A stretch of 58,942 nucleotides of DNA, counting the filler, from Dugesia japonica (Eukaryota): NCBI GenBank assembly GCA_001938525.1. It is 5 parts of 5 records of this genome, joined end to end, with 100 filler letters (N's around TTAATTAATTAA, not from the genome) between each part and the next. Parts side by side here need not be neighbours in the genome. Positions count along the whole stretch, not along the records: positions 1 to 22,406 come from MQRL01626953.1; positions 22,507 to 30,820 come from MQRL01633358.1; positions 30,921 to 40,029 come from MQRL01261349.1; 2 more parts are not named here. One strand, given 5' to 3'. Under the pieces are notes generated by a model. It was not told the origin of the DNA, searched no databases, and saw nothing but the letters and a program-made list of their open reading frames with translations. A program made the translations under genes and the position numbers. Position 1 is the first letter of the stretch; every line of letters begins with the position of its first letter. Below, piece by piece: positions 94-33,404 of this stretch.

Positions 94-116
94 CAGTGCG
101 CCACTATCTATCTACT
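94..116 (+). mobile_element. Maverick/Polinton-like right terminus, copy 1
   Basis: CAGTGCGCCACTATCTATCTACT. The same motif occurs at 8777-8800, 12919-12941 and 33382-33404. Its reverse complement starts AGTAG, as Polinton ends do. It is joined abruptly to a minisatellite. Confidence 0.65.
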
Positions 117-410
117 AGCAACCATGTAAAATAGGGTTTATGAGTGTATTTATAGATAGTAACCTTGTATTATATGGTTTGTGAGTGTATTATTTACTTA
201 GTAACCTTGTATTATTTACATAACAACCATGAAATATAAGGTTTATGAAATATAAGACTTATGAGTGTATTATTTACATAGCAACAATGTATTATAACAT
301 GGTTGCAACTATGTAATATAGGGTTTATAAGTTTATTATTTTTGTAGTTACCTTGTATTAATTACGTAGCAACTATGTATTATAGATTTTATGAGTGTAT
401 TATTTGCTAT
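117..410. repeat. Degenerate ~20/40-bp minisatellite array, inverted relative to the arrays at 3290-4000 and 5380-5900
   Basis: Recurring units such as TTATGAGTGTATTATTTACATAGCAACCATG. Positions 116-281 are a near-identical reverse complement of about 5586-5750. Confidence 0.85.
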
Positions 411-479
411 TAAAATTAAAAAGACTATGTTTTTTTAAAGATTTATTTCATTATAAAAAATCATAACACTAAGCAAACA

Positions 480-909
480 TTAAGTAAACAAATTTAAATC
501 TTTTTTTGTAATATTTTTAACTTTCTATATAACTCCTACCGAATTATTGAACTTCTTGAAACCTTTAATCTCCACTTCTTCATATTGGTTCTCGTATCTT
601 TCTTTAAAATCTATTTAAATAACTTCATATACTTTAATTTGTCTGCATAATCCAGCAAACATAGCTTCCAGTATATTTCTATCCTTCTTATGAACTCTAG
701 ATAGAAACAAACTAAATTTGGATTTTTTTATTGAAACTGATTTCTAAAATAAAATATTAATTTATAAAGAAATAAAAAATAATTACTTCAAAGTCATAGA
801 TAATTGGAGTCTTCAAAAAAAACAACTTATAATTATGGAAATCTGTAATTTTTCCAAGTTCCATAGTTATTGTTGAGGCGTTTTGCTTAGTGAGTTGGTT
901 TTCTTGCAT
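480..909 (-). pseudogene. Small two-exon orphan gene (~130 aa) with two in-frame stops
   Basis: ATG at 909 gives MQENQLTKQ...IIYDFE. A 43-nt GTAATT...TTTTAG intron (786-744, phase 0) follows, then KSVSIKK...YEVI*IDFKERYENQYEEVEIKGFKK... Confidence 0.55.
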
Positions 910-1096
910 TTTTTAGTTGTAAAAGTGATTAATGTTGTGTAAACCTTTGCTTTAACACATTTGTTTGCGATACACACATACTCGTTAATTTTGAGTTTAT
1001 ATTTGTTAATGTTTGCCAAAATTGATATGATTTGTTAATATTTGTTTTAACAGTTATGATTGATTACCGTGTTTATATAAATAGGACTCTTTTTAA

Positions 1097-2586
1097 CCCT
1101 TAACCGTCCAGTAGTGTCTCAGAGACACTGTTTAAATTTCGTTTTCATAGTACATCTAAAGTTTTGAATATATACAAAGTAAACTTCATCTAATTTATCA
1201 CTAATAGTCTTGTTAACCAAAATTACTAATTGAAGTCATTCTAATCAAATTATTTCTTTGACAATTATTAAAAGGTCATAAATGTGACATAAAGACTCAG
1301 GTGTGTCTGATAGACACAACATATAGTATTATAAGGTTAACAGTAATAAAATAATCTTTGTGATGTAATTTACTTACACAAATAACTATAAATATAATTT
1401 CAATAAATATTGTAAAAAATGTAAGTCAAATCTTATTACTTAACATCAAATAATTTAGACATTTAGAAATTATTAATAATATGGTTGTAAAAGTCTCAAA
1501 GAAGATTAAAAGACAAATTGGGGCCTATCAGAGATCTTTGGACCGATATTAATATTAAGCTTCATAAGTTCTATTTACCTGGTGAAAACTTAACGATTGA
1601 CGAACAACTTATTCCTTTCAAAGGCAGAGTATCATTTAAACAATACTATCCATCTAAGCCTGACAAGTATGGTATGAAGGTATGGTGGATTTGTGATATT
1701 GAAATAAGTTATCCTTTTGCTGGTTTACCATACCTTGGAAAACTTGAACTGAATAAGACAAAAAATTTAGCTCATCATGTTGTACTTATATTATGTGAAC
1801 CATATTATGGAACGCATAGAAATATTACATTTGATAACTATTTTACAAGCTTTGAGGTTGCACAATCATTACTACATAATGGTCTGACAATGGTCGGTAC
1901 TCTTAGAAAAAATAAACGCTGTATTTTGTTATCTACTATGCACCATAGCAAACAATTTGACGCTAACAACAAAAATAAATCGGAAATTAATATTTATTAT
2001 AATAAAACAAAAGGTGGTGTTGATACAATGGATCAGTTAGCAAATGAATACACAATTCGGCGCAAAACAAATAGATGGCCCGTAACGTTTTTCTAAAACA
2101 TTCTTGATATTTTTGGGATTGCATCTTTTGTAATATGGAAAGAATTGTATCCTAGATGGAAAGAAGGAAAGACAAATGCACAGAGAAAAATTTTTCTAAG
2201 AGAAATAGCAGCCGAATTAGTCAGTCCTCACATTCAGAGACGAGGGAAAAAAGGGTTAACTGAGTTCCACTTGAAAGCCATGTCGGATATTGCAAGTATA
2301 AGTCAATAGCAGTTTGAAGATTCAATCGTAAAAGAATCCGCAGTAAAAAAAAGGTTTCACATATGCCCGTGTAAAATTGCAAGGAATTCAAAACAATGTT
2401 GCAATACACGTAATCAAAATGTTTGTCTTGAACATTCTACAAAAAGAATTCAATGCAAACAGTGTTCTTCTCTGTAATAAAAATAAATTTTATTATTTTT
2501 TGTTATAATTTAAAAGATTTCCTGTGTAGTGTCTGTCAGACACTACTGGGTGGTTTTGGTGCAAAAGCTTTCTGGATGGTTAAGGG
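1097..2586 (+). mobile_element. piggyBac DNA transposon, internally deleted
   Basis: TTAA TSD at 1093-1096 and 2587-2590. 15-bp TIRs CCCTTAACCGTCCAG and CTGGATGGTTAAGGG match at 14/15. Subterminal GTGTCT..AGACAC palindromes lie near 1114, 1303 and 2529. Confidence 0.95.
1518..2477 (+). pseudogene. piggyBac transposase, truncated and disrupted
   Basis: Catalytic motifs LTIDEQL, FDNYFTS and GGVDTMDQ. The N-terminus is missing, there is a deletion after LRKNKR, a stop at 2096, and a C-terminal Cys-rich remnant (ICPC...QCC...VCLEH...QCKQC). Confidence 0.92.
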
Positions 2587-2611
2587 TTAAAATAAATTCA
2601 CTTTTTATAAA

Positions 2612-30920: not shown

Positions 30921-31520
30921 AGTAAAAAATCAGGATGATAAAACTTTAATCAAGATTCTAAGTGAATGTTGGTTATTGAAGTTTGTTTCACCAAAGATCG
31001 ATTCATGTTGACCATGGAAGATGTTTTAAAGATTTGGCAAAGAAATTTAATTTTAAAATAGAATATTCTAGTCCATACCACCATCAAGCAAATAGTCAAA
31101 TTGGACGGCAATTTCGAATGATTAGAGATTGGATATATTGCTGTGTCGAAGATAAATTATTCAAAAATTGGGAAGAATGTTTACCTCAAATAGAATTTAN
31201 TATGAATTCAACAATTCANAAAAGTACTAAAATAAGTTCTGCAGAAATAAATTTTGGAAAAAGGCTAAGTATAGATAAATTTGAAAGCTCAGATAAATTT
31301 CTAAACAATGAGGATAAATCGAATCAAATTCACAAAAATACAGATAAGAGTTCTAAAATTGGTGACAAAGTTTGGAGTAAAATTGATGTTAGAAATAAAC
31401 AAGAAAAACTATATGATGGTCCATACACTATAATTGATAAACTACCCAATAAGAGCTATAAAATTCAGAAAAATGATGGTACTGGAATATTTTGAAATAT
31501 TGAATGGCTTACGCCATATT
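30921..31520 (+). mobile_element. Gypsy integrase C-terminal fragment
   Basis: Motifs HVDHG, SSPYHHQAN, LPQIEF and YDGPY. Confidence 0.85.
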
Positions 31521-31619
31521 TAATATATGTGAATAAGATATATTTCTGATAATTAAATGTTGATTTGACTCGTATGTATGTTGAGATTGATGCGACTTGT
31601 ATGAACATTGTTAATTATA

Positions 31620-31876
31620 TAATTTATTTTTTTAATTATTGCATCACTTATATTCCCCACATTTAAGAATGCAATTAGTGTGTAATTGCCACTATTTATT
31701 ATAATACAATTTTATTAATTTGTATTTACTTCTCAATAATAATAAACAACATTTATGATAATTTAAACTAAATCCTCAGTAACATAGGCTTTAGATAACT
31801 GAAGGATTTTCATTCTCGTTATGCGTCGAGATTTGATTAATGCTGCGAAAAACGGAATACTTTGTGGTTATTTCAT
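31620..31876 (-). pseudogene. Possible Maverick small basic core-like protein, decayed
   Basis: MK*PQSIPFFAALIKSRRITRMKILQLSKAYVTEDLV*IIINVVY recalls, by eye, the small basic ORFs found near Polinton ATPases. Confidence 0.35.
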
Positions 31877-32159
31877 TTTTATCTAAATAATCCATAGATG
31901 CCAAAAAGTGTGTATAAGGATATCCTTTTTTCATTTACGTTTTCATTTGCTACCTTTTTATACTGATTCAATCCAACTTGTTTTTTAAAAAAGGTTTTTG
32001 AAATGATTTTTGACCTTTGTCTGGTTTTCAAACTTTGTTTGGTTTTTAATCTTTGTTTGATTTTTCGTTCAGGTTTTAGTTTTGCTTCAGCTTGTGGACT
32101 AGTTTTGTGTTGATCGACTATTAAGTTTTCACCATTTTAAAAAATGCATAATCACCTAT

Positions 32160-32761
32160 CTTGTTTATACATAATAATTACCATTAAGATTATAAATATC
32201 AGTTCAACCTCTAAGTTCATCTGAAAATTAGAAAAGGATATCCATGCAGAATTACCGTAGTATCATTGAATAATTCAATAAGAAATTGTCTGTTATTAGG
32301 ATAGATTTGCCTTGCTCAAAAATCCACTACTGTTTGATTTATTTTGGATTGGCTTTTTAAATATAACGAGATTTTGCACATTTTAATTACGCATCCTATG
32401 ATTCCCCCTTTGATGAAATAGGTCTTCAGTAATAAATATCACAGTGACACCACAATACATCGATATCTTTGTAAATAAATTGTTAAAGTCTTTTTCTTTA
32501 TTAGCTTCCTGATATACATTATCAATAACAATCACATCACCTGATTTTAATCTCTTGATCCTGTTTTTATTAAATTTGTTTTAATTTTCAAAAATTTGAT
32601 TGAGTTAATCAATGTTCCTCATCTGCACGTATATGCCAATATATCTTCTTAAGTTTAGATTTCAATAAGTTTTATTTCAATATTTTACATACAAAAAATA
32701 TTTTCCACTACCACTTAGACCAACAATTTTATAAAAAAGCATTATTTCTTAACTATTTCAT
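32160..32761 (-). pseudogene. Maverick/Polinton packaging ATPase (A32/FtsK-HerA-like), decayed
   Basis: Walker A IVGLSGSGK (about 32727-32701) and Walker B VIVIDN (about 32535), followed by NLFTKIS, VTVIFITEDLFHQ, LVIFKKP, ARQIYPNNRQFL and FNDTT..LHGY. Confidence 0.85.
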
Positions 32762-33381
32762 TTTAATTTATTTATAAATTTAGTACATTGTTTATATTAC
32801 TATTGTTATTTGTTTAAATTAATTAAATTTTTGTAAAACATAGAGAACACAAAGGAAATAAATGATAAAGAAATGACTGATGAAGATATATTGATTGACT
32901 TCTTATCTGTTTAATAAAAAGCATGTGTGTTTTAAATAAATTTTCTCATAATTGTCTTTTGTGTTTTATCTTACATAGATATTTCAATTTTAATACATAG
33001 ATGTTGGTAAAATATTTCAAAAAGTACATAGAAGTCATTAAATTTTTTAATAAATTACATAGAAGTCAGCAAACGTTTTCAAAAATATTTCAAAATATAA
33101 CAAAATACTCATATATGTGTGTATGTGTGTTCATTTTTATGATTAAATATTACATGTGCAACATAAATGCATTTTAAAAGTTTTCATAATCTTTTTAAAA
33201 TCAATTTTATCCATTAACAATTTGTAATTGGATAATTTATTCATTCAATATTTCAAATTGAATTTTTGAGATAGCAGTTATGTTCCTTGAGCTTTTACAA
33301 GTCCAAAGATATCAAGTTTGTCAGGATAGCATTTATCTACTGGTTTTAATGGTAACTTTAAAATTGAGAATTTAGGTGGCT

Positions 33382-33404
33382 CAGTGCGCAACTATCTACC
33401 TACT
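33382..33404 (+). mobile_element. Maverick/Polinton-like right terminus, copy 4
   Basis: CAGTGCGCAACTATCTACCTACT, about 620 bp from the ATPase remnant on the same contig. Confidence 0.7.

Follow-up and report, generated by a model that had tools for sequence, protein, structure and literature searches.

Organization of the locus

The window, a 58,942-nt stretch of Dugesia japonica DNA, comprises five assembly pieces of 8.2-22.4 kb, with 33 N-runs and with identical artificial 100-nt spacers at 22407..22506 (stops in all six frames), 30821, 40030 and 50601; homology was seen to run across none of the four. A short terminal motif occurs four times (copies 1 to 4), marking what is read below as the right ends of four elements. 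Two of the spacers separate copies 3 and 4, so that the four copies do not lie on one contiguous sequence. Copy 1 adjoins the window edge, with just 116 bp of its element present. It is followed at 117..418, on the minus strand, by an inverted copy of the inner arm of copy 2, consisting of a 42-bp minisatellite and matching 5433-5750 in inverted orientation (89% overall; 157 of 164 aligned bases over 116-280, z 39.6 against shuffles). This inverted arm stops close to where the right arm has its inner edge, and from its sequence looks like a candidate inner end of the left terminal inverted repeat (TIR) of copy 2, interrupted by copy 1. Within the interior of copy 2 lie a piggyBac insertion with its TTAA duplication (1097..2586, plus strand; DDE_Tnp_1_7, E 2e-40), whose empty-site joints (1094>2587/2590) are present in read runs X1, X2 and X7, a second, direct and truncated partial copy of the inner arm (3371..4221, plus strand, 87% identical to 5361-6154), and a broken TBP-like accessory gene that points inward from terminus 2 (4841..5255, minus strand; HMM iE 1e-21; Pfam TBP). 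The right arm of copy 2 (5377..8777, plus strand) is non-coding, rich in minisatellites with 42-, 31- and 27-bp units, and very abundant in the genome, with bin depths of 1e5-4e5 in X1 that represent summed depth and not copy number.

Terminus 2 abuts a fragment of a Gypsy retrotransposon, Gypsy A, extending from RT/RNase H to integrase (8801..10307, minus strand, 83-84% identical to 54014-55431). The fragment is cut at 8801 by the terminus and at about 10307 by a break that carries no motif. Beyond this break the interior or arm of copy 3 (10308..12918, plus strand) is non-coding, minisatellite-rich, high-copy and possibly composite; no gene was found in it, and many contigs diverge at 10908. 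Terminus 3 is followed by Gypsy B, present as its 3' half from the protease on (12942..16315, plus strand) and 84-88% identical to Gypsy C at 35890-38899, the LTRs of which are 91% identical. Copy 4 lies on the third piece, which begins 2.5 kb upstream of its terminus inside a Gypsy insertion. The 3' end of this Gypsy (integrase end and probable LTR; 30921..31661, plus strand; tblastx, LTR edges set by eye) reaches from the piece start to the interior of copy 4, where two broken genes remain. One is a conserved small Polinton ORF (31662..31909, minus strand; HMM and tblastn), with an HMM iE of 5e-8 for 31715-31891 and the stretch to 31662 added by eye; in related loci it comes next after the ATPase. 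The other is an A32/FtsK-type packaging ATPase (32200..32742, minus strand; HMM match, nine stops in the frame read), which begins 662 bp inside terminus 4 and points inward. It has 18 homologues (lowest E-value 5e-31), of which 11 carry the annotation PF04665 Pox_A32; a scan of the viral_contigs collection with the ATPase gave no relative. Toward the end of the same piece, an arm resembling the subterminal region of copy 3 (39405..40029, same strand, plus; z 22.8) runs up to the spacer at 40030, and its terminus would be expected at or beyond that position. Stretches at 26.2-26.6, 29.1-29.5 and 33.8-34.0 kb, considered as Polinton capsid remnants, gained no support from profile searches, and a tblastx match between 22.0 kb and the copy 4 arm fell within the shuffle range.

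The terminal motif

A 20-nt core of the motif was searched on both strands of the window with sequence shuffles as control. It matched four times, always on the plus strand, whereas shuffles gave a mean of 0.01 matches each and in no case four, which bears out the sequence-only reading of this DNA on the number and common orientation of the copies. Terminus 1 (97..116) and terminus 4 (33385..33404) match the core with zero and one mismatch, respectively, and end in a single ACT followed by AG. Terminus 2 (core 8778-8797; 8778..8800 with ACT) and terminus 3 (core 12919-12938; 12919..12941 with ACT) show two and zero mismatches and end in (ACT)2. The length of about 23 bp given earlier thus holds for copies 2 and 3 if the end is placed at ..ACT, whereas copies 1 and 4 then measure 20 nt; with the end at ..CTA the motif is 21 nt in all four copies, and microhomology leaves the register of the end uncertain by 1-3 bases. 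A 21-nt form allowing up to six mismatches found nothing beyond the four copies on either strand of the window. A partial motif without the terminal tail at 34102..34114 (plus strand) is a candidate decayed end or internal binding site, and a weak partial copy lies at 8333.

Similarity is confined to the outermost bases. Of the last 32 bases, 28 agree between copies 1 and 4, which are only weakly similar deeper inside (z 2.2). Among the four copies and one partial copy, compared over 90 and 400 nt of interior, none of ten pairs exceeded the shuffle maximum. The claims that the interior differs at every copy and that several families have only a minimal end of 20-32 nt in common therefore both stand. 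A scan of the viral_contigs and genome_contigs collections with the motif gave no match in either; an 18-nt form had one collection match, 5' of a phage-like gene, which was regarded as chance.

Junctions and read evidence

At copies 1, 2 and 3, identity to a homologue that stands uninterrupted at another place in the window begins no more than about two bases from the motif end. The targets are the inverted 42-bp minisatellite (copy 1), a Gypsy integrase on the minus strand (copy 2) and a Gypsy protease (copy 3), in agreement with the sharp junctions beside cut targets described before; the right flank of copy 4 has no recognizable homologue. The right-flank hexamers AGCAAC, CGTATT, GGTCAA and AGATTG read as previously given, and none of their 53 occurrences in the window is followed by left-end-like sequence (best, 11 mismatches). 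Neither a left terminus nor a target-site duplication was seen within the window, and it likewise lacks the other halves of Gypsy A and Gypsy B, including the 5' half of the latter. That three ends of a single piece fall on one strand has a chance probability of 0.25; for four ends it is 0.125. With the arm at 39405 and the partial motif at 34102, which have the same orientation, the third piece too holds two or three concordant ends; jointly with the first piece this has a chance probability of about 0.06-0.125 by a hand estimate. Truncations without a motif lie at about 10307 and at 39404.

Mapping of reads to 1-13200 at 85% likeness covered four of the 12 runs listed and gave very many matches; no loose ends at the termini occur among the 24 rows listed of about 17,670, and the mapping bears out neither the junctions nor any left end. 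At position 65 the summed contig depth in X1 is 46,541, against 5-37 for single listed contigs, indicating that the subterminal part of copy 1 is a repeat. Fifty bp inside terminus 2, at position 8730, the depth is no more than 17-28 against a bin average of 2.5-3.9e5; either this end departs from the norm of its family or its coverage is poor. In run X8 the Gypsy parts are covered and the arms hardly at all; low cover in that run is no finding.

Relationship to Polintons

Polintons (Mavericks) end in 5'-AG..CT-3', typically (AGT)2//(ACT)2, and are flanked by a 6-bp target-site duplication. Copies 2 and 3 end in (ACT)2 and copies 1 and 4 in one ACT, within the register ambiguity of 1-3 nt. Genes link two of the four copies to Polintons: copy 4, the only one with an A32/FtsK-type ATPase inside it, together with the next gene, and copy 2 with its TBP-like gene. 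The latter scores 51-75 bits against copies from Polinton loci and 16-29 bits against solved eukaryotic TBPs (44 bits at best against any solved TBP), and by sequence is of the Polinton-locus type. No Polinton gene evidence was found in the window for copies 1 and 3. The (ACT)2 ends and the inward-pointing genes of copies 2 and 4 support the Maverick label proposed earlier, and the most probable reading of the motif copies is as outer termini of old, broken Maverick virus-like transposons. A six-frame search of the window with both polymerase-like clusters (C11, C15) gave no match to protein-primed PolB, and the copies are consequently classed as Polinton-derived remnants and not as whole members. 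Within the window the integrase HMM matched Gypsy integrases only, and the clusters for major and minor capsid and adenovirus-type protease (C3, C4, C7) had no match.

A metagenome scan for the ATPase provided related loci, of which 80 of 137 were kept. In Polinton-type loci among these (L001-L039) the ATPase is 70-72% identical to that of copy 4 over the best segment and is followed by the same small ORF, and a TBP-like accessory gene like that of copy 2 occurs in 12 of the 80. The related loci retain a rve-chromo integrase, a capsid protein, an adenovirus-type protease and, on long contigs, a large polymerase-like ORF, whereas the window copies do not; their capsid protein folds like the double-jelly-roll capsids of PBCV-1, mavirus and Sputnik (E 3e-16). 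The large ORF combines an endonuclease VII domain with a PolB motif-B-like string, escapes Pfam DNA_pol_B_2, and received no name from PDB and NCBIfam searches. In these loci 3-4 kb separate the ATPase from the contig end, compared with 662 bp between it and terminus 4 here, and none of the 80, whose contigs capture no terminus, shows the present motif. Nematode pPolB2 Polintons carry an HNH domain (PMC10748475), and the large ORF of the relatives likewise has a domain of HNH type, endonuclease VII; the likeness is one of description, and the window itself holds no polymerase remnant.

An expansion of Mavericks has been reported in Dugesia, without a link to this window. Vertebrate Mavericks (adintoviruses) most often end in (ACT)2-3', with an A32-type ATPase near the end and pointing inward, accessory genes around a core and most copies decayed; their intact elements measure 12.7-24.6 kb (PMC8097293), against 8.2-22.4 kb for the assembly pieces here; among vertebrate copies, 2,166 are without discernible TIRs and 134 are intact. 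The present copies agree in their ATPase and accessory genes and, for copies 2 and 3, in their ends, but comprise fragments only, with a single ACT in copies 1 and 4, and conservation between families reaches 20-32 nt here as against six there. The minisatellite-rich candidate arm of copy 2, at 3.4 kb, is longer than the TIR lengths found in print, which are 46-1,447 bp in the same vertebrate study (PMC8097293), 100-1,500 bp in another account and about 2 kb at most. Precedent for multi-kb TIRs comes from Pieris polintons, which have TIRs of about 2 kb (10.1101/2025.02.07.637071); these hold capsid and protease genes, whereas the copy 2 arm is non-coding minisatellite DNA. Copy 2 may represent a long-armed non-autonomous Polinton derivative with a TBP-like gene.

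Origin of the arrangement

The four copies are probably remnants of several divergent, old and abundant Polinton families, or deletion derivatives of them, that inserted in the ordinary two-ended manner. We infer the pairing of TIRs, the target-site duplications, the order of events and the role in replication alike. The motif would be the outermost, conserved 20-32 nt of the TIRs of divergent families. By analogy with protein-primed replicons, its terminal AGT repeat would serve for priming and as the integrase attachment end, and polymerase or terminal protein would bind the adjoining inner bases; such roles would explain why nothing beyond this stretch is conserved between families. Integration of each copy at both ends, with a 6-bp duplication, is the likeliest course. 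Copy 1 would have entered the left arm of copy 2, its body lying outside the window, and copy 2 would have entered Gypsy A, the 3' end of which is predicted to the left of the window. A later motif-free deletion at about 10307 may have cost both Gypsy A and Gypsy B their 5' halves and copy 3 its left part, and copy 4 would have been struck by the Gypsy within which its assembly piece breaks. Only right ends would be on show because any right TIR end has ..CT-3' on the plus strand and the window takes in the right half of the nest. The partner of copy 1 must lie beyond the window, that of copy 2 is predicted to do so, and that of copy 4 lies beyond an assembly break, while one deletion explains the missing parts of copy 3. 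The single facing is thus probably a product of nesting in repeats and of truncation by deletions, by the edge of the window and by breaks in the assembly, and if so it is ordinary.

The sequence-only reading had instead proposed one-ended or intramolecular integration, in which a single Polinton end joins a new target and the DNA between is deleted. Four to six ends facing one way, the missing left terminus and Gypsy halves, and the sharpness of the junctions count in its favor, but any insertion gives sharp junctions, and the window edge, the spacers and the 10307 break suffice for each missing part. An opposite-facing arm is present at 117-418, and adjacent deletion should spare the interior behind the active end, whereas the interiors of copies 3 and 4 are interrupted at positions that carry no motif. 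Among the papers searched, none brought one-ended transposition together with Mavericks and Polintons, and the proposal, unsupported by the window, is judged unlikely. Mis-joining of short-read contigs at an abundant shared terminus, which would make some junctions unreal, is very unlikely. The window does contain N-runs, artificial spacers and highly repeated arms, and positions 116, 8800 and 12941 are bridged by none of the 32 contig pieces listed of about 245,600; yet every junction falls at the same motif base within 1-3 nt and away from N-runs, and the long repeat common to both sides that mis-joining needs is absent. Words of the stretch 31700-34140, across junction 4, also occur in four runs from three samples, at 70-80% (five runs, X1-X5) or 58% (X7), although one may be the source data.

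Two other transposon classes were weighed as sources of the motif. Helitrons, one-ended by nature and with unrecognizable 5' ends, have a 3' end formed of a hairpin and CTRR and insert before T. Copies 1 and 4 contain an imperfect palindrome, then 10 nt and then CTAG, but CTAG occurs in only two of the four copies and is followed by C or A, never T, copies 2 and 3 have no CTRR end, and folding is no better than in shuffles (z 0.30, 0.31, -1.23 and 0.44). Pfam found no Rep/helicase remnant among 79 ORFs and 21 read-through frames, and a Helitron origin is scarcely probable at all. Academ elements move by cut-and-paste, with TAG..CTA ends and a 3-4-bp duplication. An Academ-like class ending in ..CTA-3', with the Polinton genes captured or neighboring, would account for the exact 21 nt in all four copies, and the CT after ..CTA at junction 2 also matches the target. 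At junction 3, however, the base after ..CTA mismatches the target homologue, the longer end needs fewer changes, and Polinton genes run inward from two termini in Polinton order. The Pfam search showed no other transposase inside the elements, though Pfam has no profile for the Academ transposase, as a published account states (PMC5751038). An Academ-like identity is highly improbable.

Wider reading

A broader reading, considered quite unlikely as a whole, joins several of these features. The copies would be abundant non-autonomous derivatives, cross-mobilized and self-targeting, that often join by a single end with deletion. Their short interiors (a TBP-like gene and small spliced genes) would lie between multi-kb minisatellite arms, and families with only the 20-32-nt end in common would be mobilized by one polymerase/integrase set. 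They would insert preferentially into each other's arms, with a single end joined to a nearby target and the DNA between deleted. If true, Polintons would be active makers of polarized deletions in repeat clusters, and one-ended integration with adjacent deletion, if shown genome-wide, would be a rearrangement mechanism of which literature searches found no description for Polintons. Under the likely reading, that of broken Polintons inserted in the ordinary way, the arrangement matters little, decayed Mavericks being common in repeat clusters. The 20-32 nt common to unalignable families would in addition mark a possible minimal origin and integrase site and could be used as a seed for finding all such elements genome-wide. 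End motifs closer to this one may be listed in the supplements of published Polinton papers.

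The Terminal Motif and Its Junctions

The 20-nt core of the Maverick-type terminus occurs four times in the window, always on the plus strand, with starts at 97, 8778, 12919, and 33385 (copies 1–4; 0, 2, 0, and 1 mismatches, respectively) compared with a chance expectation of 0.01 on average in 100 shuffles. These are the four same-facing copies described in the sequence-only reading, which also reported that no left (reverse-complement) end accompanies them; a search of both strands of the window that tolerated as many as 6 mismatches over 21 nt likewise recovered no further copy in either orientation. 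Copies 2 and 3 end in (ACT)2, and copies 1 and 4 in a single ACT followed by AG. The right flanks of copies 1–3 each have an uninterrupted homologue elsewhere in the window, and identity with that homologue starts at the motif end or within approximately 2 bases of it. The sharp junctions claimed previously thus stand for these three copies, with the exact motif end ambiguous by 1–3 bases because of microhomology. Upstream of the motif, alignments between copies are no better than shuffles, and the earlier view that each copy contains different sequence holds except for copies 1 and 4, which have 28 of 32 terminal bases in common.

The commonest end of vertebrate Mavericks is (AGT)2//(ACT)2, sharing its (ACT)2 with copies 2 and 3 (PMC8097293). 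Most vertebrate copies are decayed, with 2,166 lacking discernible TIRs vs. 134 intact elements of 12.7–24.6 kb (PMC8097293). At 3.4 kb, the minisatellite-rich arm of copy 2 (5377–8777), a candidate TIR, is longer than the published TIR lengths found, for example 46–1,447 bp (PMC8097293).

To the right of terminus 4, a partial motif with the same facing lies at 34102, and 33448–33473 matches 8375–8400 of the copy 2 arm at 24 of 26 positions (score 42 vs. a shuffle maximum of 37), both segments being downstream of a motif-like core. The interval 33405–34114 may be another decayed arm.

Genes Associated with the Termini

Copy 4 contains a broken minus-strand ORF starting 662 bp inside the motif which, with X placed at its 9 stops, has 18 protein matches (best E 5e-31), 11 of them annotated Pox_A32. 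Alignment of the homologues of this ATPase led to metagenomic Polinton-type loci, and 80 of 137 confirmed loci were taken. The long related loci encode, in order, the ATPase, a small ORF, an rve-chromo integrase, two large ORFs, a small ORF, a capsid, and a protease, with an additional large ORF on the opposite strand. The predicted fold of the capsid ORF resembles the double-jelly-roll capsids of PBCV-1, mavirus, and Sputnik (pLDDT 71; E 3e-16). In the opposite-strand ORF, a candidate polymerase, a single PolB-like motif accompanies an endonuclease VII domain, as in the HNH-bearing pPolB2 class described for nematode Polintons (PMC10748475). An ORF resembling a ubiquitin-conjugating enzyme by eye was noted among the accessory genes of one locus (L005:225–722, minus strand).

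Profiles built for 34 gene clusters of the related loci gave non-Gypsy matches at three places in the window: the ATPase, the small ORF following it (31715–31891), and a TBP-like gene inside copy 2 (4841–5255, minus strand). The same profiles revealed no polymerase, Polinton integrase, capsid, or protease remnants in the window, and no gene evidence was found inside copies 1 and 3. The genes of copies 2 and 4 are directed inward from the motif. With ends matching the published form and Polinton-type genes inside these two copies, the name Maverick/Polinton given previously is well chosen; an Academ-like end is very unlikely, and a Helitron end more improbable still. Nevertheless, since the pairing of ends is unproven and genes for polymerase, integrase, and capsid are missing, we class the copies as remnants derived from Polintons rather than as whole members.

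The TBP-like gene (~150 aa) is present in 12 of the 80 related loci (L002, L004, L005, L006, L010, L012, L018, L022, L023, L024, L029, and L033), mostly upstream of the ATPase, and in L029 downstream of the protease. The window remnant scores 51–75 bits against these locus copies vs. 16–29 bits against solved eukaryotic TBPs, and 44 bits at best against any solved TBP, a protein of ~200 aa; a host TBP pseudogene was therefore rejected. TBP-like genes have already been annotated in some related viruses (PMC8502044).

The copy 2 interior also holds two small, apparently spliced genes at 2694–3154 (plus strand) and 4336–4650 (minus strand), neither with a Pfam family, with short GT..AG introns discerned by eye at ~2834–2877 and ~4546–4592. 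A piggyBac insertion with a TTAA duplication occupies 1097–2586 and is absent from other copies of this interior (empty-site contigs, three runs).

Origin of the Same-Facing Termini

A right TIR ends in ..CT-3' on the plus strand regardless of gene orientation, and the shared orientation therefore indicates only that the visible sequence lacks left ends. The termini are probably those of ordinary two-ended Polinton insertions that would have nested, later eroded, and now be viewed through a fragmented assembly, with the shared 20–32 nt as a putative priming and integrase end of the kind familiar from protein-primed replicons. By analogy, the motif is predicted to work like a Polinton end; the feature is real, correctly named, and most likely ordinary. 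Points that count against this reading are the length of the copy 2 arm, the low depth inside terminus 2, and the lack of any observed left end or TSD; the nested arrangement would also require several inferred events, with the other halves outside the view.

The sequence-only reading instead proposed one-ended or intramolecular integration producing adjacent deletions, which we consider unlikely. Consistent with it, none of the 53 sites of the copies' flank hexamers in the window carries a left end and no TSD was seen; in addition, an arm like that of copy 3 at 39405–40029 has the same facing (z 22.8), and counting it with the partial motif at 34102 lowers the joint chance, estimated by hand, to ~0.06–0.125. 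Against it, Gypsy A (8801–10307, minus strand) is also cut at ~10307, and the 3' LTR of Gypsy C (the homologue including 35890–38899) lacks its last ~23 bases at 39404, with no motif at either place. Only 116 bp of copy 1 are in the window, and its flank (117–418) repeats inner sequence of the copy 2 arm in inverted orientation (matching at 157 of 164 bases in its first part; z 39.6), terminating near the inner edge of that arm as a left TIR would; the copy 2 left end and the Gypsy A 3' end are therefore predicted to lie left of the window. Moreover, the probability of three concordant ends on one piece is 0.25, and copy 4 is on a separate piece whose start, 2,484 bp upstream of it, falls within a Gypsy element; this Gypsy meets the Polinton ORF at ~31661. 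Our search, which excluded most subscription papers and Repbase descriptions, found no published account of one-ended transposition for Maverick/Polinton elements.

Under nested insertion, a single deletion at ~10307 could have removed the left side of copy 3 along with the 5' halves of Gypsy A and Gypsy B (12942–16315, plus strand), because the two Gypsy elements are head to head. Four identical 100-nt spacers (at 22407, 30821, 40030, and 50601), each carrying stops in every one of the six reading frames, divide the window into five pieces of 8.2–22.4 kb. No homology was observed to continue from one side of a spacer to the other, and how the pieces are ordered and oriented over long range is not to be trusted. 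Mis-assembly as the source of the junctions is judged improbable.

Abundance and Other Features

The interval 31700–34140 is partly present in 7 of 12 listed runs from three studies, 6 of which contain half or more of its words. Four runs aligned to 1–13200 show the arms and interior of copies 1–3 to be abundant repeats. In run X1, summed depths, which are not copy numbers, were 2e4–7e5 in bins of these arms and interiors, 1.7e3 in the piggyBac interior, and 5–37 for single contigs. At 50 bp inside terminus 2, depth was only 17–28. Among the rows listed, none fell at the three termini of this interval; among those for run X2, 7 contigs connect the minisatellite at 5518 with sequence resembling the motif core. 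At 10908, 71–114 contigs (runs X1, X2, and X7) depart from the window sequence, and the copy 3 interior may therefore be composite.

Host genes with short introns occupy 28084–28950, on an 8.3-kb piece, including an S4-domain gene (Pfam S4), presumably IMP3-like, and, on the minus strand, the terminal part of an EF-hand gene. A large Gypsy-like element at 42055–49642 carries hydrophobic ORFs downstream of pol and, between gag and pol, ~3 kb of extra ORFs that match no Pfam family and include two repeats related to each other. Finally, a broken ORF at 26205–26642 (minus strand) has one weak unnamed relative (E 1e-5); judged by eye, it may represent the terminal part of a site-specific non-LTR endonuclease.
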